Assembly (NCBI GenBank): GCA_963693055.1
Contig: OY843751.1
Coordinates: forward strand, 2,912,001 to 2,976,000
Direction: 5' to 3'
DNA: 64,000 nucleotides
DNA from: a bacterium
GTDB lineage: Bacteria > Zhuqueibacterota > Zhuqueibacteria > Residuimicrobiales > Krinioviventaceae
The notes beneath the pieces are model-generated. The model was not told the origin of the DNA and ran no database searches. It worked only from the letters and a program-made list of their open reading frames with translations. The position numbers and the translations under genes are program-made. Below are positions 42,264 to 64,000 of the stretch, piece by piece. Numbering within the stretch: position 1 is the stretch's first letter; each line of letters starts with the position of its first letter.

Positions 42264-44798
42264 TCAATTGTTGGAAATAGCTACAGTTTCATTTTTCTCA
42301 GCAAATTCAATATCGTCAAATCCATACCCGGATTCATCCGTTATTCTAAAGTATAGCCCCATTTCTCCTATGCGATTTGAAGCTTTAACCATAATGTAAT
42401 TTTGTCCCGCATTTAAATTGATTTTAGTTCTTAAACGGTCCAAAATGGGTTGTTGATAGTCATTCTGTGTAACAACTTTGCGGTTATTCAACCATACTTT
42501 TATTGGACTCGTTGGCCCCAATCGTAATTCAGCAGTTCGAGATGAAGGCACCCAAACTGGCAATACTGCATAAACTGCACTATTATAATGAACATCACAA
42601 ATCTTTTTAAAATCAATAAATCCATCATATAATGCATCATTATCCGAAATTAAAAAACCTTCATTATCATTATGATAAAGTTCATTCAACTCATTCTCTT
42701 CAGGATAAAATTGTTGATTAAAACCCTTTTCAATATCATATGGTCCAAAATATTTCCATTTACTTTCTGGTGGCGCACCGGTGCGTTTGACAATTTCTTT
42801 ATAATCATCAAACTCTTGTTTGTAATAATGAATACTAGCCAATGCCATCAGCATCGAAATTTCAAAATGACGGTTTTCAATTGATTCTGAAAACGCTAAC
42901 AATTTTTCTATATTCTCTTGGTTTAGACGACCATTATAAAATCCCTGTCTGATTCCATCAAAATAATATCTCCAATAATTATCCCATGTTATATTGGTCA
43001 TTTGATTCAATGCAGTGGTAATAATTTCATCAAAATCGACTACATAACTGGTATACTCGTCAATATAACCATCGTTGTATAATATTTCCTTGAATGCCAT
43101 GGCAGATATATTTATCATAGGATCTTTGTTGTTTTCAAGAAGCATGGTCAATAATTGGTCCGTCTTTTTATAATAATTATCGATGGTAAATGCAAACCGA
43201 ACCATTATAAAAACCATATTCGGAGTTATATTTTCAAGAGATTCTGATTCAATAAATTTATCATAAATAGCTTCTATACGTTTTCTATTTTCAACATTTT
43301 CAGGATCAACAATTAACAATGCCAAAAGAGCATTAAAATGTTCAGGTTGTTGTTCAAGTATTTCTTCCAAAACCTCAACAACCTTGTTGTATTTGTTTTC
43401 AACAATATATGTATTTGCTAACAGCAAATAAGGATTAACAGTGAGCTCAACAGGACCTTGTTTTTCAATCAACTCTTTGACAATTTTATGTGCCTTGCGA
43501 GTATCACCTTTATCAAGATAGGCTGTGACTAAATGATTAGCCGCAGGATAAAAATCTTTATCAATGTCGAGTGATTTCTCAAACATCTTGATGGCTCTGT
43601 CAAGCTCTCCCTGTTCAAGCAATAACTCACCATAACTATCCAAAGGATTCGGTTCATCTTTTGCAATATCAATATATTTTTGTAATGCAGCATAAGCCAG
43701 ATCAATCTTGCCAATATCTGCATAAGCGTAACCCAAATGATTATAAGCCAGTTTTAAATCAGGATCCAATGCAATGGTAGTTTCGTATTGCTCTATAGCT
43801 TTTTCAGACCGACCGATCTGAAACTGATAAAAATTAGCCAATTGAAAATGTGCGTCTGCATCTTCGGGGAATTGATCAACCAGTTGTTCAAAATATTTTA
43901 TTGCTTCAAAAATATCACCGTCAGTAATAGCCTTTGCACCCAGTATTCTCAATTTTTCTTTTGGAGGTGCGTTGGCAGCGTACCGCGCAGCTTTTTCAAG
44001 CATTGCTTTACGTTTTTCAACATCCATACGCAATCCGTAATATTCAGCAAGTCGAATATATGCTGAAGCAAAAGTACTATCAATTTCAACCGCTTTTTGA
44101 AATTGTTCAAAAGCTTTTTCATAATAGAGCTGATTTTGCAACTTCATGCCTTGCGAATAAAACTTGAATGCTTCTAACGACTGAAAAGTAAGATCACCCT
44201 TGTTGACATCAATTTCATTTAACGCATTTAAATTGATTTGAAGATTCTCTCTTAACAAATTTGAAATGCGATTGATCATAGAAAAAACATTTTCAAGGCC
44301 GCCACCCGCCTCAATTACTTTTTGCAGCAATCTTCCGGTAGTACCTTCACGCAATTCAAGGTCTATATAAAGTGAATCTGCAGCATAACGAAATTGTCCA
44401 TTGATAAAAACCTGGGCATTGATTTGCTTTGCCAGATTGGATCCTGTAACCGAATCTTGAATCGCAAAAGAATTTATATCAAAATTTTGGATTGCTTCAT
44501 TTATTTGCAAACCGGGAATTATAATTAATTGACGGGATTGGGCAAGCTCCGAAGTCAACATCTCTACAATTCCTGATTCAAGCCAGTTTAAATTCGCATC
44601 ACCGGTTCGGTTCAGGAAATGATAAATGGCAATACTCTTTTTCTGAGATGCTTCAAATTGGATTGTAGATATGCGGTCTTGCATCAATGCGCTGTTTGGC
44701 TTTGATGCAAGCTTTATTCTGCGATCCATATTTGAATCACAAGAAAAAAGGAAAAAGATTAATGCGAATAGAATAATATGCTTAAAAAACCTTGTCAT
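42264..44798 (-). CDS. Lipoprotein with FlgO/TolB-N-like domain, TPR array and C-terminal PA14-like beta domain
   Basis: Lipobox LFSC; SIAI..F.N.TGD.NL.WL..G..EML..EL; many TPRs; W..GP...YA...IKVWLN C-terminus. Confidence 0.78.
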   Translation of the reverse strand: MTRFFKHIILFALIFFLFSCDSNMDRRIKLASKPNSALMQDRISTIQFEASQKKSIAIYHFLNRTGDANLNWLESGIVEMLTSELAQSRQLIIIPGLQINEAIQNFDINSFAIQDSVTGSNLAKQINAQVFINGQFRYAADSLYIDLELREGTTGRLLQKVIEAGGGLENVFSMINRISNLLRENLQINLNALNEIDVNKGDLTFQSLEAFKFYSQGMKLQNQLYYEKAFEQFQKAVEIDSTFASAYIRLAEYYGLRMDVEKRKAMLEKAARYAANAPPKEKLRILGAKAITDGDIFEAIKYFEQLVDQFPEDADAHFQLANFYQFQIGRSEKAIEQYETTIALDPDLKLAYNHLGYAYADIGKIDLAYAALQKYIDIAKDEPNPLDSYGELLLEQGELDRAIKMFEKSLDIDKDFYPAANHLVTAYLDKGDTRKAHKIVKELIEKQGPVELTVNPYLLLANTYIVENKYNKVVEVLEEILEQQPEHFNALLALLIVDPENVENRKRIEAIYDKFIESESLENITPNMVFIMVRFAFTIDNYYKKTDQLLTMLLENNKDPMINISAMAFKEILYNDGYIDEYTSYVVDFDEIITTALNQMTNITWDNYWRYYFDGIRQGFYNGRLNQENIEKLLAFSESIENRHFEISMLMALASIHYYKQEFDDYKEIVKRTGAPPESKWKYFGPYDIEKGFNQQFYPEENELNELYHNDNEGFLISDNDALYDGFIDFKKICDVHYNSAVYAVLPVWVPSSRTAELRLGPTSPIKVWLNNRKVVTQNDYQQPILDRLRTKINLNAGQNYIMVKASNRIGEMGLYFRITDESGYGFDDIEFAEKNETVAISNN

Positions 44799-46786
44799 AT
44801 ACTCTCTGTTATTTTTGCAACAATAAGGGTTATATCGTCAAATTGGTCCATATCACCAGAAAACTGGTTTACATCATGCAATAAATTTTTTAAAAGAGTG
44901 TCTGATGCTTTATTATTTGAATTTTTTAGAAATTCAACCAATTGATCTTCACCATACTCCTGGTATGATTTATTCATTGCTTCAGTAATACCATCTGTAT
45001 AAAATAATAACGTATCCTGTTTGTTTAATATAACACTTTCTTCATTCAAATACATTTCAAAAGTTTTATTATCTGCCAAACCCAAGCCAATACCGGGTGG
45101 TATATGCATTTCAACCTGATTATTATTTTGCTTACGTGCAATTAGCAATGCATTATGTCCTGCTCTTACAAATTTAAAAGAATTATCTTTTAAATCAATA
45201 ATTCCATAGATCATGGTTGCAAATATTTTTCGGTCTATTGTTTCATACAAACGTTGATTTACATTCAACAACAACTCTTTGGGGCTTTTAACCGTATAAG
45301 CCAAAGCGCTCATCATCCCTTTTATTTCAGACATGTAAAATGCAGCAGAAGCACCCTTACCTGAAACATCTGCAATTGCCAGTCCTATCCTTTTTTCATC
45401 AAGAATAAAATAGTCGTAATAATCACCACCAATTTCAGCAGTAGATATACATACACCGCTTATGTCAAGTCCAGGAATTTTAGGGTCCTGCTGTGGAAGC
45501 AATCTTTGCTGTACAGCTTTAGCGATCTCAAGCTCTCGGCTGAGTCGTTCTTTTTCTGTAACCTCTTTTAAAAGATTTGCATTTTCAAGAGCCAGGGCAG
45601 CTTGCTTTCCCAATGTAGACAAAAACTCTAGCACATCCTGGCTATATTGCATTTGAGCGTTTTTGGTAACAAGAACCAGTCCCAATAAAATATTTTGATT
45701 AACAAGTGGTAAAAATATTTGATTTTTTAAAAAACCAAAGTGCTCAAACGTATCAGTAACAAGTTGTTGATGATTATGCTCAAGCTGTGAAACATCGAAC
45801 GCCGCTTGCTTTTCAAGAAACAGGGCTTTGCATTCTGGTGAAATGGGTATCACTTGATTTTTTGAATTTACATCGGGATATGCATACAGGGTACATGCAT
45901 TAACAACGTTCTCGTCAGAAGGAACAATAAGTAAAGTACCGCGTGATGCATTCATGGATTTAACAATATGTTCAGTAATTACTTTACCCAACTCTTCAAG
46001 AGTATAGGTAAAACCCAATTGCTTTGTAAATTGTTCAATACTATTTTTTTCACGTAATCTTGAAATCATATAATTATAAGATTCAGCCAGAGAACCGGTT
46101 TCATCATTACTTGTAACCGCTAATGTATTCTCAAGATTGCCATTAGAGACTTGCAACATGGCATCAGAAAGCTGATTAATTGGCCGGGTTATTCTAAGTC
46201 CAATTATTACAGAAGCAACAATACCAACAAGCAAAAACAATAATAATAAATAAAGGTTTACAAGAGCTCTTTGTCTAAACTTGTTGTTAAAATCAACCAA
46301 TGAAAAACCAACATCCACCTTGCCTAATAATTCACGTCCTAAACGTATATTAACAGAAAAATGATCAAAATCATTTTGACTTTCTTCAGCAACCAAACCA
46401 TTTGCAAGGTTTTCAACAACACGAATTTGTTCCTCACGAGTAAGATAGCTGTTATCGCCAAGATCCAGCCAGTTGTAATTGATTCCAAAAGCTGCCAGGC
46501 AGTTATTTTCATCAAAAATAGCGATATATACCAGATCCTTTCCAATATCTGAGGCAATGATATTATCGATCCATTCCTGGTAAACAAACCATCCGGCGGT
46601 TTCTGCTAACCGAATTGATGCAATTTGTTTGGCGACCTGTCCCATATTGTTTCTTATTTCCTGTCTTTCAACAGATAATTGTCGAACAGTAAAAAAATAG
46701 GATACAAGTCCCATAATTATCAAAATCAAAACTACAATAGCAATTGTAATTTTAATCCATATTTTATTGAGTAATTGTTTCTTCAT
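44795..46786 (-). CDS. PP2C/SpoIIE phosphatase with TM sensor, HAMP and GAF domains
   Basis: GGDYYD, ADVSGKG, RAGH, YTDGITEA, DDIT. Confidence 0.92.
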   Translation of the reverse strand: MKKQLLNKIWIKITIAIVVLILIIMGLVSYFFTVRQLSVERQEIRNNMGQVAKQIASIRLAETAGWFVYQEWIDNIIASDIGKDLVYIAIFDENNCLAAFGINYNWLDLGDNSYLTREEQIRVVENLANGLVAEESQNDFDHFSVNIRLGRELLGKVDVGFSLVDFNNKFRQRALVNLYLLLLFLLVGIVASVIIGLRITRPINQLSDAMLQVSNGNLENTLAVTSNDETGSLAESYNYMISRLREKNSIEQFTKQLGFTYTLEELGKVITEHIVKSMNASRGTLLIVPSDENVVNACTLYAYPDVNSKNQVIPISPECKALFLEKQAAFDVSQLEHNHQQLVTDTFEHFGFLKNQIFLPLVNQNILLGLVLVTKNAQMQYSQDVLEFLSTLGKQAALALENANLLKEVTEKERLSRELEIAKAVQQRLLPQQDPKIPGLDISGVCISTAEIGGDYYDYFILDEKRIGLAIADVSGKGASAAFYMSEIKGMMSALAYTVKSPKELLLNVNQRLYETIDRKIFATMIYGIIDLKDNSFKFVRAGHNALLIARKQNNNQVEMHIPPGIGLGLADNKTFEMYLNEESVILNKQDTLLFYTDGITEAMNKSYQEYGEDQLVEFLKNSNNKASDTLLKNLLHDVNQFSGDMDQFDDITLIVAKITESI

Positions 46787-48164
46787 AGATATTTGTACTC
46801 AAAGTGTCATTTCTGTTTGAGATATAATCTTGCTTTAATTGTCTCATGAATTCTTCAACAGCTTGGTAACCATATTTATTTGACCAAAGTGGAAAAATAG
46901 ATGTATTTGATAATAATAAATCAGTATCATTAGACCATAAATTATTTTCAACAGCTCTTTTCCAATCTATTGTACCCGGAATGGGCGAAAAGGATGCAAT
47001 ATTTATTTTTACACCTAATGATTTAACAAAATTCACACTTGCCAGTACTTCATTCAAGGTTTGATCTGGTAATCCCATTAACACATATACACCAATATCA
47101 TCAGGATTTACACCTGCTTTTACAAGATTGGAAATAGCCTGCTCCAGATCACGGTTATTTACTTTAGACATTTTATTCTGCCTGTCAGGATCAACAGATT
47201 CAAAACTGAGTCTAACGGTTTGCCCACCTGCCTCTGCAAACAAGGATGCAAAATTGCTGTTCACAAATCTTGGTGGTATTCCATTAGGAGTATGCAGCCG
47301 GATACGAATATTTGCTTGAACGAGTTGGAGCAATAAAGGTTCAATATATGATGTTGACTTGTATAACAAGGCATCATCATAAAAGGCAACATGAGAAATT
47401 TGTTTTACATTAACCCAATATTGAATTTCCCTAAATACCTCCTCAGGCTTTCTTTTATCAAATTTAGGATTTAATAAATGAGACGCACAAAAACTGCATC
47501 GATATGGACAACCGGTTGATGTTAATATTGCTATTGCTTCCAATTGAGGGTACAATCCATAAACAGGATACGGTAAATCAGAAAGGCAATTTAAAGTATG
47601 CTTAACATCAGTTCCCAATATATGATTCAACAACTTTATAAATAATGAAATATCTGATCCGGTGAAAAGAAAATCCGGGGCAATATGTTCACGTGCATGT
47701 TCAGGAGCCAGTGTGGCATATATTCCACCAAGAATTATTGGGGTATCCGGGAAATAACTTTTTAATAATGCATATATATCTTTAACAGCAGGATACCAAT
47801 AAGTCATAATTGAAGTCAGACAGATTAAATCCGGTTTTTCAATGTGATTTTGCAATTCATGCTTGACCAATTCAATGGGTAATCCATATCTGCAATATTT
47901 ACGATCAATGTGTGAAAGAACATCTGGTTTATCAATTGAATCTCGATAAAATTTGCCGGTACCATTACTTTTGCCATGGGGAATTTTGAAATTTGAATCA
48001 CTAAAGGCAGGATGATTTCGGTCAAGACAGTCTAATAACTGCAGATCAAAACCGGCATCCTGCAGTACACCTCCTATTTGCAATAAGCCAAGGGGTTTTG
48101 ACCAAAAATCATAAGCGGCAAAATCATATATCCATGGATTTACAAGTAAAATCTTTTTATTCAT
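46764..48164 (-). CDS. B12-binding-domain radical SAM protein
   Basis: LLVNPW...PLGL, GGIYAT, GCPYRCSFC. Confidence 0.9.
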   Translation of the reverse strand: MNKKILLVNPWIYDFAAYDFWSKPLGLLQIGGVLQDAGFDLQLLDCLDRNHPAFSDSNFKIPHGKSNGTGKFYRDSIDKPDVLSHIDRKYCRYGLPIELVKHELQNHIEKPDLICLTSIMTYWYPAVKDIYALLKSYFPDTPIILGGIYATLAPEHAREHIAPDFLFTGSDISLFIKLLNHILGTDVKHTLNCLSDLPYPVYGLYPQLEAIAILTSTGCPYRCSFCASHLLNPKFDKRKPEEVFREIQYWVNVKQISHVAFYDDALLYKSTSYIEPLLLQLVQANIRIRLHTPNGIPPRFVNSNFASLFAEAGGQTVRLSFESVDPDRQNKMSKVNNRDLEQAISNLVKAGVNPDDIGVYVLMGLPDQTLNEVLASVNFVKSLGVKINIASFSPIPGTIDWKRAVENNLWSNDTDLLLSNTSIFPLWSNKYGYQAVEEFMRQLKQDYISNRNDTLSTNIYEETITQ

Positions 48165-48166
48165 AA

Positions 48167-49333
48167 TCAAGAAAACTGGGCAATCATTATCAATATATCA
48201 TCCCGAAGATCACCATGACTATACTCTCTAACATCTTTAACAATCGATTCGGCTGCTTTATCAACAGGTTGATCTTTATAATCCTGAAATGTTTTCAGTA
48301 ATGCGTCTAGCCCAAATTGCTCCTGAAATTCATTTTCAGTCTCAATTATCCCATCTGTATAAAGCGCAATTCTATCACCCGAGGAGTATTCAAAAACATC
48401 CTGTTCAAAAATATTGTCCTCTACATCAGAAAAGCCAATAATAGGATTTTGTGAAGACAATTTAATCACAGCTTTCTCGCCGACATGAAACAATAATGCA
48501 GAAGGATGTGCGCTACCGGCATGATAAAGCTTTTTATTTTGATAATCAACCTTTATGGATTGTATAGTCAAAAATAATCCGGTTTGTGAGAACGAGTCAA
48601 AGAAAAAAGCATTGAGTTGGTGTAGCAATTCTTTAGGGTCAAGCCCCTCACGTACCAATTTGTTTATTTCACTGCAAACACGATTCACTAAAAGTGCTGC
48701 GGCAATTCCATGCCCGGTAACATCAATAATAGTCATATAGAAATGACCATTATTGTCATCATATACATCCGCAAAATCTCCACCAATACCTATCATTGGT
48801 AAATATTCTACACCAAATGATATATTGTCATTTTCAAATTCTATGGGCACTAGACTATTTTGTACACGCTTTGCAAGATTAAGATCTTTTTCAATCATTG
48901 TATGGAATTCTTCAATCTCACGTTTTTGATGCTCTACAAGCATTTCCATACGGCGTTGTTCCAATGCTTTTTCAATACGAACCAGAAACGTTTCGTTATT
49001 AAAGGGTTTTGTTAAATAATCATACGCACCCTCTTGCATTGCTTGAACTGCTGTTGAGATACTTCCATAACCGGTTAAAATTATAACCTGCACATATTTA
49101 TCAGCTTTTTTTGCCGCTTCTAAAACATCAAGGCCACTGACCTGATACATTTGTAAATCAGTAACTATAACGTCGTACTGTGTTTCAGATATTTTCTCAA
49201 GTGCTTTTTCACCGGATTCTGCTTCTTCAACATGAAAAGCTTTGAGTTTTAAAATTTGAATGAACAGTCGTCTATTATAACTGTCATCATCCACTACCAA
49301 AATTTGGGGTAAATCTACATTGTTTAAACTCAT
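48167..49333 (-). CDS. Response regulator-PP2C phosphatase fusion
   Basis: REC: VDDD, TDLQM, LTG, TKP; PP2C: GGDFAD, IDVTGHG, YTDG, DDI. Confidence 0.92.
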   Translation of the reverse strand: MSLNNVDLPQILVVDDDSYNRRLFIQILKLKAFHVEEAESGEKALEKISETQYDVIVTDLQMYQVSGLDVLEAAKKADKYVQVIILTGYGSISTAVQAMQEGAYDYLTKPFNNETFLVRIEKALEQRRMEMLVEHQKREIEEFHTMIEKDLNLAKRVQNSLVPIEFENDNISFGVEYLPMIGIGGDFADVYDDNNGHFYMTIIDVTGHGIAAALLVNRVCSEINKLVREGLDPKELLHQLNAFFFDSFSQTGLFLTIQSIKVDYQNKKLYHAGSAHPSALLFHVGEKAVIKLSSQNPIIGFSDVEDNIFEQDVFEYSSGDRIALYTDGIIETENEFQEQFGLDALLKTFQDYKDQPVDKAAESIVKDVREYSHGDLRDDILIMIAQFS

Positions 49334-49339
49334 AAAAAA

Positions 49340-51103
49340 CTAACCGATCACTTTAAATCCCAACAAGGTTATATCATCACTTTGTGCTTCACCTTTGGTA
49401 AATTCACCCACTTTATCCATAATCAAATTGAGGGTATCCTGAATTTCCAGATTTTCATTCTGTGCCTGATGTAAAAGTTCTAATAAACGCCATTCCTCAA
49501 ACTCCTGCTCCATTCGATTCATAGCTTCTGTCACTCCATCAGTAAACATTAACACCAAATCACCTGAATTTAGTTCAACAGATTGGGTGGCATATTTTAC
49601 ATTCGGCATCATTCCTAACAACAGCCCCCCTTCATCAAGCTCAATACAAGTTCCATCTGTTCGCAGTAAATAAGGGGGATTATGTCCTGCGTTACAATAA
49701 ACCATTGTATTATTTTCTAAATCAATTTCCGCATAGAAAAAAGTGATAAACTTGTCTAAATTGGTATTAGCATAAATTAAATCATTTAATTTAGAAACCA
49801 AAGAGTTAATATCAGTATTTGTCATTAACAGACTGTGCAAACCCGCATGTAAATTAGACATCAATAATGATGCAGGTGCACCTTTACCAGAGACATCACC
49901 AATTGCAAGCGCAATTTTATTTTCATCGATTTTAATGCAATCAAAATAATCTCCACCCACTTCTCTGGAAGGGATATTTAATCCATTGATATGCAAATGA
50001 GAAGATTCAGGAAAAGATTCCGGGAGTAATCTCTGCTGAATCTCTCTGGCAATATTTAACTCTTCTTCCATTCTTTGTTTTTCAAGGGTTACATCGAACA
50101 GGTTTGCATTTTCAATTGATATCATTGCCTGGTTACAAAGTGTTGACAGGAAACCTATATCATCATCATCATATATAGCTTTATTTATTTTTTCACCCAA
50201 AAGCAGCACTCCTTTGGTTTGGTCCTGAATGCGCATGGGTATTACAACTTTGATATTATAATCACGTAATGCATGAATTTCTCGAGTTAAAACGGTTTCA
50301 TCAATTTTCATGGCTGACTTGACAGTTGAAAGAATCTTTAAGAATTCAGGATCCGCAAAACTAGTAACATCTTGAAGGGATTTTTCAGCCCCCTTGTATT
50401 CAAACAGTTCCAATGCATTTGTATTATCTAAAAAAACATAACAACGTGTGGCAAACATTTCTCCCATTATTGCATATATTAATAAATTGACAATTTTTTT
50501 CTTATCAAGAGTAGAGTTGAGTTCTTTGCCAATATCAAACAATGTATTCAACTCTTGAATTTTTTTATCTAATTTTTTATTTACTGTTAATAATTTTTGA
50601 ACAATTAATGCATTCTCTATAGCTGTTGATGCTATATTGGTAAGTAAATTTAAAAAATCGAGCTCATTTTTTGCATATGGGTTACCGGTTATCTTTTTAC
50701 CGAGTGCAAGAATACCTATTAACCGATCTTTAGTTTTTATGGGTAACAAAATCTCAATTTCAAGGGATTGAAACAATTCTTTCAATTTACATTGAGCAAT
50801 ATTGAGTTCATTCAATAATATAGGCTGATCGAAATGATATTCAATGGAATATGCTTTCCCAACCAGATCTTTATCCAAACCTTTTACAACCTGTATACTG
50901 AATGTTTTTTTATCATCGACAATTAATACCAATCCACGTGAAATCATCATTCTGCCCATAGGAGTGAGCAACAGATTATTTAATATGGTAGGCAGATCAA
51001 GAGAAGAATTGAGAATTTTACCTGTTTCAAACAAGGATCTCAATTCAACATGTTGCTGATCAATTTCCAAATGCAAAGATTTACTGGATCCAGAATCTAT
51101 CAT
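49340..51103 (-). CDS. GAF-GAF-PP2C phosphatase (RsbU-like)
   Basis: Two GAF repeats; GGDYFD, GDVSGKG, NAGHNPP, FTDGVTEA, DDIT. Confidence 0.92.
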   Translation of the reverse strand: MIDSGSSKSLHLEIDQQHVELRSLFETGKILNSSLDLPTILNNLLLTPMGRMMISRGLVLIVDDKKTFSIQVVKGLDKDLVGKAYSIEYHFDQPILLNELNIAQCKLKELFQSLEIEILLPIKTKDRLIGILALGKKITGNPYAKNELDFLNLLTNIASTAIENALIVQKLLTVNKKLDKKIQELNTLFDIGKELNSTLDKKKIVNLLIYAIMGEMFATRCYVFLDNTNALELFEYKGAEKSLQDVTSFADPEFLKILSTVKSAMKIDETVLTREIHALRDYNIKVVIPMRIQDQTKGVLLLGEKINKAIYDDDDIGFLSTLCNQAMISIENANLFDVTLEKQRMEEELNIAREIQQRLLPESFPESSHLHINGLNIPSREVGGDYFDCIKIDENKIALAIGDVSGKGAPASLLMSNLHAGLHSLLMTNTDINSLVSKLNDLIYANTNLDKFITFFYAEIDLENNTMVYCNAGHNPPYLLRTDGTCIELDEGGLLLGMMPNVKYATQSVELNSGDLVLMFTDGVTEAMNRMEQEFEEWRLLELLHQAQNENLEIQDTLNLIMDKVGEFTKGEAQSDDITLLGFKVIG

Positions 51104-51615
51104 TACTGTTCCTTGTTCTTGTCAAGTAATTCCGAATCCTGAGCATTTATAAAATATTTCACCATGGTCACCTGGTTGTTTTTTCCAGGATTAATATCAT
51201 AGACCACATCATCCATGAGTGTTTTCATTAAATAAATACCCAATCCACCTACTTTGAGCTCTGCAAGATATTGCTTCAAATCCGGAATTTTGATGGATTT
51301 CGGATCAAATCCTTTGCCATGGTCAGTAACGACAAGTGTGAACTTTTGATAATCCACTTTGATAACAATATCCAATGTACTGTCTTTGTTATCTTTGGAA
51401 TATGCATGCTTGATTACATTCGTACAGGCTTCGTCGCATGCAAGTTCAATTTTGTTCACTTCTTCTGCATCGAAACCAACCTTGTCGGCTACTTTGCCAA
51501 CGAATCCTCTTATTAACTCCAAATTGTCTGTCTGACTGGGAATACGAAGGGTATACACTCCCTCCAGCTTTGGAGCAATTGGCTGTTGTTTTTTCTTTTC
51601 AGCAGTATTTGTCAT
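51103..51615 (-). CDS. rsbW: Anti-sigma factor / Ser kinase (RsbW/SpoIIAB family)
   Basis: N-box DEACTNVIKHAY, G1 DHGKGFDP, G2 GGLGIYLM. Confidence 0.9.
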   Translation of the reverse strand: MTNTAEKKKQQPIAPKLEGVYTLRIPSQTDNLELIRGFVGKVADKVGFDAEEVNKIELACDEACTNVIKHAYSKDNKDSTLDIVIKVDYQKFTLVVTDHGKGFDPKSIKIPDLKQYLAELKVGGLGIYLMKTLMDDVVYDINPGKNNQVTMVKYFINAQDSELLDKNKEQ

Positions 51616-51633
51616 AACATTTCAACCTGTTAT

Positions 51634-51981
51634 TTAACTGTTAAATTTTTCAATAGCTTCTTCTTCAGTATCAACTATATCATATAATGTAGGAAAACCG
51701 AGAAGATCGAATACTCTGAATATTTTGGGAGTCATGTTGGACATTTTAATATCACCTTCATGATTTCTGATATTTTCAATAAAGCCCATAAACACGCCCA
51801 ATCCCGCGCTACTGATATATGACAATTCTTTAAAATTGACTAGAATTTTAAATTGCTCTGTATCGATAATCTTTTGGATTGCACTTTCCAATTCAGGGGC
51901 AGTATGCGCGTCCAAAAAGCCACCGATATATAAAACAGCAATTCCTCCTATTTCTTCTCGGTTAATTGTAAAATTTTCCAT
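51634..51981 (-). CDS. rsbV: STAS anti-anti-sigma factor (RsbV/SpoIIAA family)
   Basis: GFLDAHTAP, YISSAGLG phospho-Ser motif; start at ATG 51981 after GAGG. Confidence 0.92.
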   Translation of the reverse strand: MENFTINREEIGGIAVLYIGGFLDAHTAPELESAIQKIIDTEQFKILVNFKELSYISSAGLGVFMGFIENIRNHEGDIKMSNMTPKIFRVFDLLGFPTLYDIVDTEEEAIEKFNS

Positions 51982-52020
51982 TAATTCCTCCTGAATCAAT
52001 TAATATTTAAACGCTTGTTC

Positions 52021-54111
52021 TTATAAAACCTTAATCACAACAAATGTTAAATCATCTGTTGTGTTCGCACCATCGAAAAAAGTATAAATTTCGTGAATAA
52101 TCTTTTTCTTAATTTCTGCTGCGGATAAATGATGTAGTTGCGCAAAGGCTTTACCCAAACGTTCTTCACCAAATTCTTCACCACTTCGGTTTCTGGCTTC
52201 GGTAACACCATCCGTGTATAGTAAAAATGTATGTCCGGTTTTTAAGGGCATTTTTATCTGCTTTAATGTTTTCTCAAAAAGATTACCTGAATCCAATCCC
52301 ACACCCAATCCTGCAGGCTCTAGCAATTCATAATCAAATATACCGGTAGAAGCAAATAATATCGGACAATGGCCTGCTCTGCAAAAAGTAAATGTCTTTT
52401 TCTTGACATCAATAATACCATAAACTAGGCTAATAAATGTATTTCTATCAAAATTTTTGTACAGAATATTATTGGTGGGTATTAAAAGATTTTTTGGGGT
52501 TTCATTTGCCCTGGCAAGGGCTTCCATGATCCCCTTCACTTCTGCCATATAAAAAGCAGCTGACGGACCTTTACCGGAAACATCACCTATGACTACACCC
52601 AGGCGGTCATCATCAATCTTGAAAAAATCATAATAATCTCCACCCACTTCATTTGCCGTAATACAAACAGCATCTAACTCTATTCCCTCCAACTGCGGCA
52701 TATCTTTGGGCAATAATTTCATTTGAGCTTCATGAGCAATGCGGAGTTCCTGCTCAAGTCGCTCTTTAACGATAGATTCCTCAACCAGTCTGGCATTTTC
52801 AATAGCTACAACAGCCTGTTCACAAAATGCACGAAGCATATCTACATCATCAACTTCAAAGCCAAATTCAATTCGCTTTCCGGCATATAAGAATCCAATA
52901 ACCTTTTCATTGTGGATTAATGGTAAAACCAAAAGTGAGTGACAATCATGTTTCCACTTGCATAATTTCTTTGCAATAGGACTTTTTAAAGATTGATTGT
53001 TTAAAAAAGGCTCTTTATTTGTCTTTAACCATTCAGAAAGAGGATCGTGAAATGAAGGCTGCCTTCGTTTTAATTCAGAAGGTGAAAGATGTTTGGATGA
53101 AACAAGCTGCAATTCACTAGTTTTTGTGTCCAGTAATTCCAGCCACGAGAAATCAGCTTCTGTTACTTCAGTGGCAAGATTTACAATGGTAACTACAAGT
53201 TTGTTAATGTCGAACTCGGAACTCACTGCCCTGCTTAAATGATGAAAAGAAGAAATTTGTCTTATTTTTCTATCATACAATTGCGCGGTTGGCAAATGGC
53301 CCAGTAAAGCAAAAAAAGCAATGATAATATATATAGTTAAAAAGATAATACTTGAATCAACAAATTTACCCAATACAGGACTAAAAGAATACACCGGATT
53401 CAGCTTGTGAAACAAATAACCAAAATAAAACTGAATGGGTATTAAAATAAATCCACCCCAAAAACAGGCCAATTTCTGTTTTCGATTCAGATAATTGATC
53501 CAGGAAACTCGAAACGAGTTGAAAACCATCAAATTGATGAGAATAAATAATATTACATATTCCAGATTGTTAAAAAAGCCCTTGTCAAGCCACGAGAACT
53601 GTCTCAACGTTTCCGGTAAACTAAATAACGGGTATAATAACAAAAAAATCATCAACCAGGTAAAATTACGGGCTGTAGATTTTTTACGCTTGATATAAAT
53701 CAAATTACGCAAAGTGCCCAGGCTGATAAGCACAAATATAGTAACAAAAAATGTCCAGGATAACACGAAAATATAATTTCCAGCACTGGAATAGATCGCT
53801 TTATTGCCCTCATCAAAATCAAACAAAAAATCCAAACGATCATTGGAAATAATTAACAATAAACAGGTAAATAAAATTAAAAAGAAAAGCGATCGTAAAC
53901 CACGCAAAACATTTCTATCTGATGCCCATTTTTGTTTATATACGAGGGGTAAAGAAAGGATTAATGCAAAAATAATAAAATATTCACGGATATAGATAGC
54001 CGTTACCGGTGGTCCATCGCTCATGGCCATCATGTTCATGTCTTGCACTACGGCTGCAATAAGCAAGGCAAGAGGTAATAATAATGATAATTTACTGATT
54101 TCTTTCATCAT
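52021..54111 (-). CDS. Multi-TM-GAF-PP2C phosphatase
   Basis: About 8 TM helices, GAF, GGDYYD, GDVSGKG, RAGH, YTDGVTEA, DDLT. Confidence 0.92.
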   Translation of the reverse strand: MMKEISKLSLLLPLALLIAAVVQDMNMMAMSDGPPVTAIYIREYFIIFALILSLPLVYKQKWASDRNVLRGLRSLFFLILFTCLLLIISNDRLDFLFDFDEGNKAIYSSAGNYIFVLSWTFFVTIFVLISLGTLRNLIYIKRKKSTARNFTWLMIFLLLYPLFSLPETLRQFSWLDKGFFNNLEYVILFILINLMVFNSFRVSWINYLNRKQKLACFWGGFILIPIQFYFGYLFHKLNPVYSFSPVLGKFVDSSIIFLTIYIIIAFFALLGHLPTAQLYDRKIRQISSFHHLSRAVSSEFDINKLVVTIVNLATEVTEADFSWLELLDTKTSELQLVSSKHLSPSELKRRQPSFHDPLSEWLKTNKEPFLNNQSLKSPIAKKLCKWKHDCHSLLVLPLIHNEKVIGFLYAGKRIEFGFEVDDVDMLRAFCEQAVVAIENARLVEESIVKERLEQELRIAHEAQMKLLPKDMPQLEGIELDAVCITANEVGGDYYDFFKIDDDRLGVVIGDVSGKGPSAAFYMAEVKGIMEALARANETPKNLLIPTNNILYKNFDRNTFISLVYGIIDVKKKTFTFCRAGHCPILFASTGIFDYELLEPAGLGVGLDSGNLFEKTLKQIKMPLKTGHTFLLYTDGVTEARNRSGEEFGEERLGKAFAQLHHLSAAEIKKKIIHEIYTFFDGANTTDDLTFVVIKVL

Positions 54112-54135
54112 ATCCGCTTTTTTGTTCTATACGTT

Positions 54136-54163
54136 GATACGAATAAGCTTTTAAATAGTTACA
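54136..54163 (-). promoter_or_regulatory. Putative ECF-type promoter of the PP2C-rsbV-rsbW operon
   Basis: TGTAAC-N16-CGTATC in a 62-nt intergenic gap. Confidence 0.55.
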
Positions 54164-54173
54164 ATTATGTATT

Positions 54174-56558
54174 TCAAGTGAGTTTGAATACCAGCATAGT
54201 CATATCATCATGCTGTGGTGTAGATTTTGTAAATGCCTTAACTTTAACATTAATAAAATCCAATAATTCTTTGGCTGTAGCATCATGATTAGTTTGAACA
54301 ATTTCTTCAAGCATGGATTCACTAAATTCATGGTGATCTTTATCCATAGCTTCTGAAAATCCATCAGTGTATAGCACCAGAACATCGCCTTTTGAGAGAG
54401 TTATTGTTTCTTCAGCAATAATTTTTTCAAAAACAGGTCCTTTATCCAATCCAAGAGCTAATCCGGGTGGACAAATTGTTCGTGTTTCGTAATTGCTTTT
54501 AAATATCAAAGGATTATGGCCAGCTCTAGCAAATGAAAAAGTATATTTGTCTAAATCAAAGACACCATAAATCATGCTTATAAAATGACTTCTTTCAACA
54601 TTTTCATAAAACAGACTGTTGATTTCAGTTAAAACTTTTTTAGGAGAATAAAGAGTTCGGGTCAAAGACCGAATAAATCCTTTGGTTAATGTCATATAAA
54701 ATGCAGCAGAAATACCTTTACCTGAAACATCGCCAATTACGATGCCGAGTTTATTATCATTATATTCAATAAAATCATAATAGTCACCACCTACCTCTTC
54801 AGCAGGATAGCAGATACTTGCAATCTCTAAATTCTTGATATGTGGATGAGAACGTGGTAAAAAGTTGAGTTGTACCCTTTTTGCAATTTCAAGTTCTCTT
54901 TTTAGACGTTCTCGATCAAGAATTCGCTTCACATGTTTGGGTGTATATTGCACCAAATCATCTTTGCTTAAATCATTGCGAATTCCAATTAATGAACTGG
55001 TTGCCATTATAAACAAGATCAACAGAAAAACACTTCCTGAAAGTACAAATGCCATGTGTTCAAAATGAAACATGCGAAGTGCTTCAAAAGTTAGTAAATA
55101 TACAAAAAAAGTAGTCAATGAAGTTAAAAAATCATATTTCATAAAAATAATTACAAAATATAATCCGGATATATAATAAAACAATGCTATAAACCAGGTA
55201 GGCGATGCTACAATATCATTAGGATTTGATCGTAATGCCCAAAATATCGCAACAATGAGAACAATCCATCTTTTTTTTGCCAGAAATCTTGCAAAAAAGG
55301 AAGATAAAAATAAAACAAAAACAAATTGGATCCATAGGGTTTCAGTAATAATCTTGCTAATTCTAAACAAAAAAGGTGAATGACTATTTAGATCTCGTAT
55401 ATCGCTGCTATATGGTACAAAATCAATAAATGTGAATGATCTTGTAATTTTGAACAACAATATTGAAAAACCGGCAAAGATAATTCCCAAAGCGATTCCA
55501 CGCAAGACAGATGAACCGGTAAAAGGATTAAAAAGTTTTCGATTCGCAGCAAGATCAAAGCTGAACATTTTTCCGTTCCAAGCATCACGTGTAATAGCAT
55601 CAGCACACGAGACAACAATTACACATATAAAACCTGAAAACAAGGGTCCCAATATTAAACCACCCACCATTCTGCCTGTATCAATAGTTTGGGGTTGAAG
55701 CAAGAATTCTGACAAAACGGAAACAAACATTAAAATACCAAGGGGCAGAGCAGATTTGAGAGAAAGCTCATCATCCCTTAGTTTTTTTATAAAAATATAA
55801 ATAAAAGCACCACTGATAGCCAGGAACAACAATAAAACTGAAAACATCCGGTTCATAAATGAACCGTCATCTGCTATATTTTCATAAACATATTCATAAC
55901 GCCCCACCTGATCACCAATGAGATCAATTTCTATATTGACTGGGAGTTTAGCAATCTCACCAATACTGTAAATGACTGAATAATCTGTACGGGTATCCCG
56001 GGTTTGCTGCTTGATTCGTAAAAATTCGGTATGACTACCATATTTAACTAAAATTAAAGAATCTGCTATTGATTTGGCAGTTTCCTGACTTGTGCTTGCA
56101 AGTATGCTGTCTTCATAAGCTTCAATCCAAAACGATATTTCTTCTCCGGATTGATTGAGATTCAATCCTACCCTTTTTACCCAACCAGGAAAACCAGTAT
56201 TTAGAATAGCATTTGAATCTACAGAAGCATTGTCATTGGCCGTCCACATGATAGACCAATAGTACGCAGGCAGATTGTGGGACATATAGTATTCAACACT
56301 GTCATAATCAGTAAAATATTTACTGATATACCGAAGTAATCCTTTTCTAACCCTTAACTCGGTTACAATTTCATTTTCACCGGGAGAGTATCCCCATTCA
56401 GCCAGACTTTGTTCAGCGAGTTGTTCAATTTGATCTCGATTCAATTTGAAAGATAAATGTGCTGAAGGAAATAGTAAAGGATACCATGAAACAAGCAATG
56501 ATACGGCAATTACAGTGAATAATAGATATGCTATGGTTTTTGAATTGATATTTTTCAT
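54174..56558 (-). CDS. Membrane PP2C phosphatase with extracytoplasmic and multi-TM sensor
   Basis: N-terminal TM, soluble domain, multiple TMs, GGDYYD, GDVSGKG, YTDG, DDMT. Confidence 0.92.
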   Translation of the reverse strand: MKNINSKTIAYLLFTVIAVSLLVSWYPLLFPSAHLSFKLNRDQIEQLAEQSLAEWGYSPGENEIVTELRVRKGLLRYISKYFTDYDSVEYYMSHNLPAYYWSIMWTANDNASVDSNAILNTGFPGWVKRVGLNLNQSGEEISFWIEAYEDSILASTSQETAKSIADSLILVKYGSHTEFLRIKQQTRDTRTDYSVIYSIGEIAKLPVNIEIDLIGDQVGRYEYVYENIADDGSFMNRMFSVLLLFLAISGAFIYIFIKKLRDDELSLKSALPLGILMFVSVLSEFLLQPQTIDTGRMVGGLILGPLFSGFICVIVVSCADAITRDAWNGKMFSFDLAANRKLFNPFTGSSVLRGIALGIIFAGFSILLFKITRSFTFIDFVPYSSDIRDLNSHSPFLFRISKIITETLWIQFVFVLFLSSFFARFLAKKRWIVLIVAIFWALRSNPNDIVASPTWFIALFYYISGLYFVIIFMKYDFLTSLTTFFVYLLTFEALRMFHFEHMAFVLSGSVFLLILFIMATSSLIGIRNDLSKDDLVQYTPKHVKRILDRERLKRELEIAKRVQLNFLPRSHPHIKNLEIASICYPAEEVGGDYYDFIEYNDNKLGIVIGDVSGKGISAAFYMTLTKGFIRSLTRTLYSPKKVLTEINSLFYENVERSHFISMIYGVFDLDKYTFSFARAGHNPLIFKSNYETRTICPPGLALGLDKGPVFEKIIAEETITLSKGDVLVLYTDGFSEAMDKDHHEFSESMLEEIVQTNHDATAKELLDFINVKVKAFTKSTPQHDDMTMLVFKLT

Positions 56559-56950: not shown

Positions 56951-57523
56951 TTATTTTCCAGGTTCATTAAATATTTGAGCAGAAAAAATATATATGTCCG
57001 CATTTTGATCTTTCCAGGCACTCTTATTCAACCCTGCCTTTATACAGGTATGCTGCAAAAAAATTTCAACATTCCATTCATTTTCGCTAGCAACCTGTGG
57101 TAATAATAATCCTCGGCGATACCCCTTTTCAATATACAGCCCATGTTCACCAATGTGAATCTCGTCAATGTTGTTTAAACGCTGCATGGGAGTTAAAACA
57201 GATATTTCAATTTCCAAATCATCAACCTCATGATGTTCAACCGGATCAAAACGGGGATCACGTAATGCAGCAGCTTCTGACATCTCTATTATTGTTTCAA
57301 GCAATGGTTTAACTGCCTGCACATACCCTATACAACCACGGAGATGTTTATTTTTATGTAAAGTTACAAATGCACCAAATTTCTCCTTAAAAACCGGATG
57401 CTTCAAGTCGTCATTCAATATCGGACGCTGTTGATGGGTAACTGCAACAATAGCGTCTCTGGCAATTTGCAATAATATGTTTTGTTCTTCAAGACTTAGA
57501 ATATCTATAACCTGATTATTCAT
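56951..57523 (-). CDS. amrA: AmmeMemoRadiSam system protein A (AMMECR1)
   Basis: GAFVTL, LRGCIG, DPRF, GLLLPQVA, C.KAGL. Confidence 0.93.
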   Translation of the reverse strand: MNNQVIDILSLEEQNILLQIARDAIVAVTHQQRPILNDDLKHPVFKEKFGAFVTLHKNKHLRGCIGYVQAVKPLLETIIEMSEAAALRDPRFDPVEHHEVDDLEIEISVLTPMQRLNNIDEIHIGEHGLYIEKGYRRGLLLPQVASENEWNVEIFLQHTCIKAGLNKSAWKDQNADIYIFSAQIFNEPGK

Positions 57524-57547
57524 GATATTCTCCTCTTTATATAAATA

Positions 57548-59005
57548 TTATTCTTCAAAGACCTGAGTGTTATATACCCAGAATTCTGCTCCATCCTTCC
57601 ACGCATTTCGATCCAGACCGGCTTTTCTGCAAAGGCTTGACATCTCTTCATCAACGGTTTTCCACCCTGCTTCTATCGGAACTTCTGGTAAATACGTTGC
57701 TCGTTTTCCATCCTTTATTAATATAATACCTTGTTTACCCATTTTAAATTCCGAAATTGAATTGATTTTATAGACATTACTCAAATAAACAGATATTTTA
57801 ATATGGATTTTGTCAAATTCATCAGGGGTTAACGGTTCAAAACGAGGATCACCAAATGCTGCAGCAACGGCCATATGAGGAACCAATTCAATTAAAGGGC
57901 GATCAGATTCATGTTGTCCAATGCAACCTCGCAATATTCCATCAATGGTCAAAGTAACAAATACGCCTCTTTTCTCTTTCATCTCATCAGTTCCAGGCTT
58001 AAAAGAAGATAGTTTGCCAGTACGCATGTATTCCGAAATACTTTTACGGGCTATTTCAAGTAACTGATTTTGTGTATCACGATCAATCTCATTAAATTCA
58101 ACCTTTGCAGAAACCGCTTTTGAAAAAATTATAGCACCATAACCAACAACATACCCTTCTTTAACTCCCATAACATCATTAGAATTGGTTCTGCCTAGTA
58201 AACTTGCAGTATACTCACCCATCTGTTTCAATACAACCTGCATAATTACGACAGGTGCACCTCCACAGGCTTGAAAGGAATCATTTAACAAACCTTTACA
58301 CAAGCGCTCTGGTTTAAATTCCATGATCGCATCAAGTGTTTTTTTGTCTGTTTTCTTACATTCATTATAGGAATGTCCATGATATAGATCTGTGCTGGCT
58401 ACTATTAACACATTTTTATTTTGAATAGTATTAAAAATAGCGTCACCAATAGATTTACATTGCTCCCAATTAAATCCCCCCACAACAATAGGCACAATAG
58501 GAGTTTTTGGAAAAAGTTTCTGAATGAAAGGCAATTGCACTTCTATTGCATGCTCTTCCCTGTGCCCCAGGATAGATAATTGAATAAACTCACTTTTATC
58601 GGTTATATTTTTGGCAACAGACTTTTCTACCTTTATGCTACCCAATGGAGTTTCATATGCATCACCATTATATATAGTAGCCCCATAAAAAGGATCACGA
58701 TGACTGGGTGCCATTAGAATAATATAATCATAGGTATTCCCTTTCAGACTTTTGAATGCCTGCGCAGCGGTTTGAGCAGAAAACCGGTAACCTGCATGTG
58801 GAACCATAATGGCATTAATATCGCCAGCCGGCTTTTGATCGGGTTCTCCTGATAATAATTCATCCAATAATTCATTTAATTGTGATGGATCTTTAGGATA
58901 AAAACTACCGGCAACAGCAGATTTTCGGGATATTTCTGCAAAAATGGAATTTGAAAAAAATAAAAAGATTAGAATGAAAGAATAGACCTTTGTAAAGGTT
59001 TTCAT
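57548..59005 (-). CDS. amrB: AmmeMemoRadiSam protein B (Memo) fused to AMMECR1, with N-terminal signal peptide
   Basis: AVAGSFYP, PHAGY, EHAIEVQLPF, STDLYH, ACG, VGY; then GVFVTL, LRGCIG, DPRF. Confidence 0.92.
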   Translation of the reverse strand: MKTFTKVYSFILIFLFFSNSIFAEISRKSAVAGSFYPKDPSQLNELLDELLSGEPDQKPAGDINAIMVPHAGYRFSAQTAAQAFKSLKGNTYDYIILMAPSHRDPFYGATIYNGDAYETPLGSIKVEKSVAKNITDKSEFIQLSILGHREEHAIEVQLPFIQKLFPKTPIVPIVVGGFNWEQCKSIGDAIFNTIQNKNVLIVASTDLYHGHSYNECKKTDKKTLDAIMEFKPERLCKGLLNDSFQACGGAPVVIMQVVLKQMGEYTASLLGRTNSNDVMGVKEGYVVGYGAIIFSKAVSAKVEFNEIDRDTQNQLLEIARKSISEYMRTGKLSSFKPGTDEMKEKRGVFVTLTIDGILRGCIGQHESDRPLIELVPHMAVAAAFGDPRFEPLTPDEFDKIHIKISVYLSNVYKINSISEFKMGKQGIILIKDGKRATYLPEVPIEAGWKTVDEEMSSLCRKAGLDRNAWKDGAEFWVYNTQVFEE

Positions 59006-59069
59006 TTCAGACTCCCAACATATTTCATACTATAATATATTGAAATTAGGAAATATAACAAGAAAATTA

Positions 59070-60203
59070 TTATAGCCAAATACCAGCAATAGACTGTCTG
59101 CAATAAGAACAAGACCCATCAGCAATGTGGTTTTCAGTCACTTTGAAACCTTTACGTCCTACCAACAACTTGCCGCAGCCCGGGCAATAAGTATTTTCCC
59201 CTTTATCACCGGGGATATTACCAGTATATACAAATTGTAAACCGCTATCAATTCCAATCTGACGGGCTGTTTGTAAGGTTTTTACAGGTGTGGAAGGAAT
59301 ATTTTTCAAACGATATTGCGGGTGAAATCTGGAAAAATGTACAGGTGTCTCGGGCCCCAATTCAGCAGCAATCCACTTACACATCTCAGTTAGTTCGTTA
59401 GGGTCATCATTCTGTCCGGGTATAACAAGATACACAATTTCGGTCCACATATTGTTTTCTTTGAGTAAAACCAAAGTATCCAAAACCGGACGAAGTTCAC
59501 CAGATACCATCTCTTTATAAAAACGTTCAGTAAATGCTTTTAAATCAATCTTGACTGCATCCAACACTGTTAAAAGATCCCGCATAGGCTCTGGTTTGAT
59601 ATAACCATTAGAGATCATAACGCTTTTAATCCCCTTTTCCCGACCTTTAGTGGCTGAATCATACATGTATTCTGTAAATATGACCGGTTCTGTATACGTA
59701 TACGCAATGGATTTACATTGGTAAACCTCTGCAAGATCAGCGACTTTTTCCGGTGGCATATCATAATTCCGAATTTGTTCAGGACGAGATTGAGAAATTT
59801 CCCAGTTTTGACAAAATTTACAAAACACATTGCATCCGGCAGTTGCAATGGAAAATGCAAGGGTTCCAGGTAAAAAATGAGACAATGGCTTTTTCTCTAT
59901 AGGATCAACATTTGCTGAACAGGGTTTTCCATAAACCAGGGTATAATAAGTGCCATTTTGATTTTCACGTACCCCACAATACCCTCTCTCCAAATCATCA
60001 ATTACGCATTCACGTGGACACAATTGGCACTGTATTTTACGATTATCCAGTTTTTTGTAATATCTTGCTTCAACGAGCTTCAAGTCTTGCTTTATGTTGG
60101 TACCATAACTATTTGCAAATAAATCAAAAGCAGTCGAGCATGAACCAAAAGCACAAACTGAACAAGTGGCTTTAATGGAATCGCGTCTTGATATGTTTTT
60201 CAT
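59070..60203 (-). CDS. amrS: AmmeMemoRadiSam radical SAM enzyme with RR-containing N-terminal extension
   Basis: CQLCPREC, DPIEKKPL, GCNVFCKFCQNW, YTYTEP, HFSRFHP, CPGCG. Confidence 0.94.
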   Translation of the reverse strand: MKNISRRDSIKATCSVCAFGSCSTAFDLFANSYGTNIKQDLKLVEARYYKKLDNRKIQCQLCPRECVIDDLERGYCGVRENQNGTYYTLVYGKPCSANVDPIEKKPLSHFLPGTLAFSIATAGCNVFCKFCQNWEISQSRPEQIRNYDMPPEKVADLAEVYQCKSIAYTYTEPVIFTEYMYDSATKGREKGIKSVMISNGYIKPEPMRDLLTVLDAVKIDLKAFTERFYKEMVSGELRPVLDTLVLLKENNMWTEIVYLVIPGQNDDPNELTEMCKWIAAELGPETPVHFSRFHPQYRLKNIPSTPVKTLQTARQIGIDSGLQFVYTGNIPGDKGENTYCPGCGKLLVGRKGFKVTENHIADGSCSYCRQSIAGIWL

Positions 60204-63649: not shown

Positions 63650-64000
63650 ATTACCTGCTACTCCAATATAATTCAGCAAAAAACTCTGAAATTCACGAAA
63701 CAATTAACAAAAATTTGTACACATAGTCAAGAAAATAGATAATAAATACTGCCCGAAAAATGCTGTGATTACTTTTTGCCACATTTAAAAGAAAAAATAT
63801 ACAATTTTGGGTAATCGCAAATTACATTTTTGAAAAACATTATTTTCATCCATTTACTCTTGTTGATTTTTATATACTTAGACATAAAAATGTCCGGTTA
63901 TATTTAAAACAAAATTAAATCCAACAAACATCCATTTTAAAGCAAAATCCAAGCCAAAAAGAGTATTGACCCAAAAAAAAGCCAGAGATTTCATAACCTC

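Follow-up and report, generated by a model that had tools for sequence, protein, structure and literature searches.

A conserved STAS protein and RsbW-like kinase with a variable number of sensor phosphatases in candidate division KSB1 and a sister phylum

The genes considered here lie in a 64,000-nucleotide stretch of bacterial DNA (contig OY843751.1, positions 2,912,001 to 2,976,000; referred to as the window), which is part of a complete 6.5 Mb genome (G000). They form a run on the minus strand encoding the components of a partner-switching module: a STAS anti-anti-sigma-type protein (V), an RsbW/SpoIIAB-like GHKL serine kinase (W) and five SpoIIE/PP2C phosphatases (P1 to P5). The order is P1, P2, V, W, P3, P4, a gene for a B12-binding radical SAM protein, P5 and a gene for a TPR protein, and the genes are tightly packed, with intergenic gaps of -23 to +62 bp. 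V (51634..51981; 115 residues; Pfam STAS) carries a YISSAG motif and is followed by W (51103..51615; 170 residues; PF13581, E 3e-30). The two core phosphatases flank this pair: P2 (52021..54111; 696 residues) joins an eight-helix membrane domain to GAF and PP2C domains, and P3 (49340..51103; 587 residues) is a cytoplasmic GAF-GAF-PP2C protein. P1 (54174..56558; 794 residues) consists of a transmembrane (TM) helix, a tandem-PepSY-like periplasmic domain and a CAAX/Rce1-like membrane domain, both from fold matches, and PP2C; P4 (48167..49333; 388 residues) is a REC-PP2C protein, and P5 (44795..46786; 663 residues) contains a TM helix, a periplasmic region, a second TM helix, HAMP, GAF and PP2C. 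The B12-binding radical SAM protein (46764..48170) and the TPR lipoprotein-like protein (42264..44798; 844 residues) were identified with Pfam.

A Pfam scan of the run detected five SpoIIE domains (E 3e-39 to 4e-51), one STAS domain and one HATPase_c_2 domain, and the GGD, D-V-S/T-G, TDG and DD metal-ligand motifs were intact in all five phosphatases. This agreed with the initial annotation, made from the letters of the DNA, of five PP2C genes with intact metal ligands around one STAS protein and one RsbW-like kinase. The five different inputs that it had listed were found as well, namely multi-TM with GAF (P2), GAF-GAF (P3), REC (P4), HAMP with GAF (P5) and TM and periplasmic regions with a membrane domain (P1). 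It had also described the window as free of sigma factors and histidine kinases, and indeed no sigma-70 region-2 match was detected within the window, the nearest lying 33 kb away, and no histidine kinase was found among the 58 window open reading frames in domain scans, one of them at E<=1e-8. Since five of the 12 SpoIIE matches of the 6.5 Mb genome fall within 12 kb and the gene order is kept in relatives, the cluster is not a product of chance.

The most probable start codon of V is the ATG at 51981, which stands behind an AGGAGG site, the open frame itself beginning with TTG at 51999. The phospho-site motif of V reads YISSAGL; its second serine (S64), which aligns with Ser58 of SpoIIAA, was invariant in 31/31 sequences from several phyla, and 34 columns were invariant across the same set. 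W possesses the ATP-binding boxes and the catalytic glutamate of RsbW/SpoIIAB-type GHKL kinases, with R36, E62, N66, G123, G124 and G126 invariant in 57 orthologues and D98 and G100 nearly so. The best PDB match of W was RsbW (6m36, E 7e-31) and its score lay below the curated NCBIfam cut-offs for RsbW; by its sequence W is RsbW-like, not a filed RsbW orthologue. R36 of W and D30 of V, both invariant, align with Arg23 of RsbW and Asp23 of SpoIIAA and RsbV, and RsbW Arg23 and RsbV Asp23 are reported as a contact pair in the RsbV–RsbW crystal (PMC7340262). By analogy with these Bacillus structures, V and W would be a cognate pair that docks through Arg36 and Asp30. The start of P3 overlaps the stop of W, so that P3 is translationally coupled to the kinase gene. 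Identity across phyla was 56-57% for V, 62-65% for RpoD and 35-43% for W.

The closest named loci belonged to candidate division KSB1, with STAS identity of up to 75%. A profile search detected V in 112 of 113 genomes of the phylum, as a single copy in 111 of them, and in 114 of 221 genomes of a sister phylum (that of an Ignavibacteriaceae record); our guess is that the 107 sister-phylum genomes without V are Bacteroidia and Chlorobia. V and W were adjacent in 90/90 loci, comprising 30/30 of the order, 20/20 of the phylum and two sets of 20/20 from the sister phylum, the loci beyond the 30 order relatives being hand-picked from V-positive genomes. The phosphatases were retained far less evenly. 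Among the 30 order loci, several of which are cut by contig ends, P3 was present in 29, P2 in 27, P4 in 26 and P1 and P5 in 13 each, and all five occurred together in only five (one from the same genus, three from one other genus and one with a split P1). The 20 phylum loci contained P3 in 20 cases, P2 in 14, P1 in 12, P4 in 11 and P5 in none. In the first 20 sister-phylum loci we found P2 in 16 and P3 in 10, one locus without either and no P4, and in the further 20 P2 was present in 20 and P3 in 19. What is conserved is the V-W pair together with P3, P2 or both, and the five inputs are a local maximum that arose by accretion. The multi-input hub proposed in the initial annotation stands as a conserved partner-switching module with an unlinked output, but not in its five-input form; synteny in relatives upheld the V-W core with its P2 or P3, and P1, P4 and P5 proved to be lineage add-ons. 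Sensor accretion occurred more than once, since Ignavibacteria-type loci added a PDZ-GAF-PP2C protein of their own. Different genes flank the module in different lineages (cytochrome c assembly, adenylate cyclase, tRNA synthetase and pyrimidine genes; the adenylate cyclase in L064, L065, L143 and L144), and no effector gene was conserved beside it across the loci compared.

The four metal-ligand motifs were kept in the orthologues of every phosphatase (P1 28-29/29, P2 78-89/89, P3 83-87/87, P4 41-42/42 and P5 12-13/13, with the last motif sought in the final 25 residues only); the last motif was invariant in 66 aligned P2 sequences, and the catalytic aspartate was invariant in 66 P2 and 50 P3 orthologues. 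The sensor parts could be described to different depths. The predicted model of P1 (predicted local distance difference test 87) gave fold matches to the YpeB C-terminal domain (Z 11.8), Rce1 (Z 7.5) and SpdC (Z 7.3), and P1 orthologues gave weak Pfam matches to Rce1-like families (4/28) and DUF4901 (3/28). We treat the CAAX/Rce1-like character of the modelled membrane domain (Z 7.3-7.5) as a lead only and, since the P1 alignment summary contained no conserved glutamate pair, we guess that this domain is non-proteolytic. Eight helices are predicted ahead of the GAF domain in P2; this membrane domain matched no Pfam family, its Atlas matches were nameless and its Foldseek list consisted entirely of PP2C and GAF proteins. 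For the GAF domains, the best PDB matches were generic (PtsP, DevS and a cNMP-type GAF), with none clearly best as a guide to the ligand. The receiver of P4 has the phospho-acceptor aspartate, the threonine and the lysine all present, and no gene for its histidine kinase is linked to it. Between the two TM helices of P5 lies a periplasmic region of about 145 residues. P5 and the TPR protein were both present in 13 of the 30 order loci and both absent from 17, part of these absences being due to contig ends, and neither was found alone; the TPR protein is thus a candidate periplasmic partner of P5. A derivation of the P5/TPR pair from a HAMP-adenylate cyclase/TPR pair, which follows P3 in another KSB1 lineage, was rejected, as the likeness is confined to the HAMP domain and the two TPR proteins could not be aligned. 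The B12 radical SAM gene, present in 24/30 order and 5/20 phylum loci, is probably a passenger.

In a tree of 156 PP2C domains from 55 hand-picked loci (FastTree, midpoint root), P1, P3, P4 and P5 each formed one clade, as did P2 bar three divergent members. P1, P2 and P5 grouped together with a support of 0.93, the P5 domain being sister to that of P2, and the five phosphatases thereby fell into three clades. Gene order and this tree suggest that P1 and P5 would be duplicates of the P2 phosphatase domain that acquired new periplasmic sensors, probably sharing their substrate with P2, and P4 would add a two-component input.

The conserved serine of V is very probably phosphorylated by W. Dephosphorylation of V would fall to the phosphatases, chiefly P2 and P3; that at least one of these two acts on V seems only slightly less probable, and that all five act on V has about an even chance of being right. 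Unphosphorylated V would then bind W and free the target of the kinase, for which the leading candidate is an RpoD-type sigma factor encoded elsewhere, in the manner of a Chlamydia-like throttle. This last step is the most tentative, argued by exclusion and precedent only, and we place it somewhat short of an even chance.

The exclusion proceeded from a genome inventory of sigma factors, a check proposed with the initial annotation. The source genome encodes 25 sigma-70 proteins (two RpoD-like, one FliA and 22 of the size of extracytoplasmic function (ECF) sigma factors) and one copy of sigma54, with none SigB-like. Among the top 23 or 12 candidates scored per genome, no SigB/SigF/SigG protein (TIGR02980) exceeded the cut-off in 113 phylum or 221 sister-phylum genomes, and the lone sub-threshold match in the phylum set was a FliA gene. 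Controls at the same E-value were positive in B. subtilis, Synechococcus and Thermotoga. The canonical SigB-like target that the initial annotation had named among the possible refutations was accordingly missing from the source genome and from the 113 phylum genomes searched, and on this ground the output is taken to be unlinked. FliA occurred in 46/113 phylum genomes, compared with 112/113 for V, and no sigma factor gene was found beside the module in 50 phylum loci (30 from the order and 20 from the phylum). SigB/F/G, FliA and the module-linked ECF factor of the sister phylum, discussed below, are thus disfavoured as general targets, which leaves the RpoD type as the remaining universal sigma target. 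RpoD-like sigma factors were present in 34/34 module-bearing genomes checked, in one to four copies. In the source genome they are encoded at G000:C1:6287976-6288863 and 882088-882945; a 295-residue RpoD-like sigma factor is 81-92% identical across the class, and a 285-residue one has a region 2 resembling that of sister-phylum RpoD, with substitutions at conserved positions. A complex prediction for the W dimer with ADP and the 295-residue protein scored 0.04 against a mark of 0.32 and counts neither way.

Precedent comes from Chlamydia, where RsbW is reported to bind the primary sigma66 (PMC4552016) and where the phospho-site motif described for RsbV, Y[M/I/L]SSAG, is matched by V (PMC11619594), and from Anabaena, in which NfsS is reported to bind the group 2 sigma factors SigC and SigE (PMC13712970). 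Several points weigh against an RpoD-type output. No RpoD-like gene was found at any of the 90 W loci compared. To our knowledge every bacterium has RpoD, and its presence is therefore no positive evidence. The greater conservation of V than of W agrees with V, not W, having the additional partners, and docking to V alone accounts for R36 of W. The second kinase and STAS family described below could take some of the phosphatases, and the exclusion itself extends to the top-scoring candidates of the SigB/F/G searches, to FliA and to one profiled ECF family.

A possible arrangement, somewhat short of an even bet, is that two insulated switches share the phosphatase bank, whatever the output, some phosphatases serving V/W and others (P3 or P4) a second pair. 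The source genome contains 12 SpoIIE, 10 STAS and five RsbW-like matches. A second RsbW-like kinase, W2 (G000:C1:870264-870698; L005:6265-6699), was found in 106/113 phylum genomes, and 113/113 encode STAS proteins of a family marked by a WMNS motif, whose members in the source genome lie at G000:C1:33846, 408787 and 4747612. Across the 221 sister-phylum genomes, V and the WMNS STAS protein occurred together in 102, V only in 12, WMNS only in none and neither in 107. W2 has glutamate, aspartate or alanine at the position of W R36 (20/20) and the WMNS STAS proteins lack D30, which suggests that V/W and WMNS STAS/W2 are two insulated pairs. W2 directly precedes a WMNS STAS gene in 2/20 loci and a GAF-PP2C gene in 1/20, with no fixed phosphatase neighbour, and a WMNS STAS gene lies near the P2-V-W-P3 run, inside the module locus, in 11/20 sister-phylum loci. 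The three phosphatase clades are likewise in line with a bank that may be shared between two switches, and Bacillus phosphatases are reported to discriminate STAS paralogues via docking loops (PMC11418112). Against this, the seven further SpoIIE proteins of the genome could serve the STAS partner of W2, P3 is coupled to W, and P2 or P3 stood alone beside V-W in 12/20 sister-phylum loci, as expected if the two are interchangeable on V. As to the surroundings of the second pair, one WMNS STAS gene follows secDF, and a 640-residue gene before W2, considered as a sensor, had no Pfam match and looks like one for an exported beta-rich protein. It is W2, not W, that has an RpoD-like gene in its neighbourhood, at 10-16 kb in several order relatives, which may be mere housekeeping synteny; in one genome (L205, G096:C82:24672-26494) the gene of the main RpoD-like sigma factor immediately follows W2.

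Rather unlikely, in our judgement, is that V serves as the output and controls a non-sigma partner through its phosphorylation state, with W simply its kinase, as in the STAS-output precedents SypA, BtrV and HmpV (PMC8256260, PMC13712970). The conservation of V, close to that of RpoD and far above that of W, with its 34 invariant columns, argues for this, as does the lack of a sigma factor fixed beside the module in KSB1. However, the lineage-specific neighbours include no conserved effector gene, though an effector encoded elsewhere may exist, and the docking of a kinase and of several phosphatases could be enough to account for the conservation of V.

It is still less probable that W sequesters an ECF sigma factor. 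An RpoE-like ECF gene heads the P2-V-W-P3 genes on the same strand in 10/20 sister-phylum loci and in L088; Ignavibacteria-type loci with both this ECF and the extra PDZ-GAF-PP2C protein were L226, L227, L229, L230, L232-L237 and L088. In L226 no gene separates the ECF from P2, and the source genome has its 22 ECF-sized sigma factors to offer. The gene after the ECF was tested for a zf-HC2 anti-sigma domain in four loci; L088 and L236 had the domain, and the other two gave no zf-HC2 match. The zf-HC2 neighbours indicate that the ECF may just transcribe the operon. Moreover, no orthologue of the module-linked ECF was found in the 113 phylum genomes (best 169 bits, compared with 330-365 for members), and the 50 phylum loci contained no sigma factor. 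In the passages of PMC7826278 consulted, partner switching of ECF factors is mentioned only for the ECF15 system. Control of FliA or a SigB-like sigma factor in the canonical fashion is highly improbable in view of the counts given above, even though the source genome encodes FliA.

With an RpoD-type sigma factor as the tentative output, the module can be compared with known systems. It has in common with RsbU/RsbP-RsbV-RsbW-sigmaB and SpoIIE-SpoIIAA-SpoIIAB-sigmaF of Bacillus subtilis the phospho-serine STAS protein, the GHKL kinase, the PP2C inputs and the Arg-Asp docking pair. The Bacillus sigmaB switch has more than one phosphatase (RsbU and RsbP), and here there are up to five per run; unlike in Bacillus, SigB/F/G is absent from the genomes searched and none is linked, the run contains no stressosome genes and W lies below the RsbW cut-offs. 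We did not file the module in the Bacillus sigmaB family since two defining features of that family, SigB/F/G in the genome and a target sigma gene adjoining V/W, were both lacking. The Chlamydia trachomatis RsbU-RsbV1/V2-RsbW-sigma66 system, as reported, resembles it in phylum-wide conservation, in having no SigB-type sigma factor linked, in the Y[M/I/L]SSAG motif, in two STAS proteins and in a membrane sensor phosphatase (PMC11619594, PMC4552016). It differs in that here the genes are clustered, the inputs are GAF, multi-TM, HAMP and REC, sigma binding is hypothetical and two conserved kinases have different docking residues. Anabaena NfsS/NfsR (SigC, SigE) and Synechocystis Slr1861-Ssr1600 are described as cases in which an RsbW-type kinase binds RpoD-like sigma factors encoded elsewhere (PMC13712970), and many carriers here likewise have extra RpoD-like paralogues; the cyanobacterial modules vary in number per genome, whereas V is single-copy and near universal, even in genomes with one RpoD-like sigma factor. 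Vibrio SypE/SypA, Bordetella BtrU/V/W, Nostoc HmpU/V/W and Rhodobacter RbaY/V/W are also Gram-negative systems with the sigma factor unlinked, according to the accounts consulted (PMC8256260, PMC13712970). The STAS-output systems sit in or beside the pathway that they control or are lineage-restricted, whereas the present module spans several phyla and has no conserved effector neighbour.

Sigma-unlinked switches in Gram-negative bacteria are already known, and the logic is that of Chlamydia and cyanobacteria. New here are the phylum-wide single-copy V, the exclusion of SigB, FliA and the module-linked ECF as general targets and a second co-inherited kinase-STAS pair; we found no literature on the module in KSB1, Ignavibacteria or Rhodothermia in open PMC papers and bioRxiv, supplements excluded. 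As a rule, partner switches are accessory and their number varies. A single-copy V-W pair across a phylum and much of its sister phylum, with identity near that of RpoD and no SigB, suggests a role as core global regulator in several barely studied lineages. In its widest form, the reading would be an ancestral, housekeeping-like serine phosphorelay with two channels (V/W and WMNS-STAS/W2), common to KSB1, Ignavibacteria, Kapabacteria and Rhodothermia. Different docking residues would insulate the channels, a single expandable bank of sensor phosphatases would feed them, and the relay would throttle the primary RpoD-type sigma factor in lineages devoid of SigB; this is unlikely to hold in every part. 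Culturable carriers among the named loci (Aliifodinibius, Halalkalibaculum) make the target of sigma-unlinked RsbW kinases testable, and the naturally occurring range from one to five inputs, with two STAS classes, is a ready panel for phosphatase-substrate specificity.

Other features of the window and genome were recorded in passing. A promoter and terminator scan gave 121 promoter-like sites, compared with 93+/-10 in shuffles, and 14 terminators, compared with 11.6+/-3.2, and no individual site stood out. A 93-residue gene before P1 was rejected as a target, as it occurs in the same genus only. Directly upstream of the run are AMMECR1, Memo-AMMECR1 fusion and radical SAM genes (window 56951-60203, minus strand), and most relatives from the order have them next to the module as well. 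Farther off, an 809-residue protein with receiver-like, PAS and GAF domains and no output domain detected (window 61274-63703, minus strand) is a candidate accessory sensor; its gene lies close to the module in no fewer than 13/30 loci of the order and 4/20 of the phylum. Elsewhere in the genome, two V-like STAS proteins (G000:C1:925103-925804, plus strand, and 5989016-5989693, minus strand) have a tail of about 110 residues whose basic helical end segment has no Pfam match and, judged by eye, is a possible DNA-binding output. Directly before one of their genes lies that of a 1665-residue fusion protein (G000:C1:5989820-5994817, minus strand) with an RsbW-like kinase, a membrane segment, PP2C, a long acidic region and TPR repeats, in which, also by eye, a similar basic segment seems to be repeated. 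A 297-residue protein (G000:C1:4877428-4878321, minus strand) fuses what appears by eye to be a degenerate STAS-like N-terminus to an RsbW-like domain, and a third kinase-STAS pair (G000:C1:1312387-1313149; L004:6388-7150) lies directly upstream of mlaE, an ABC ATPase gene and mlaD.

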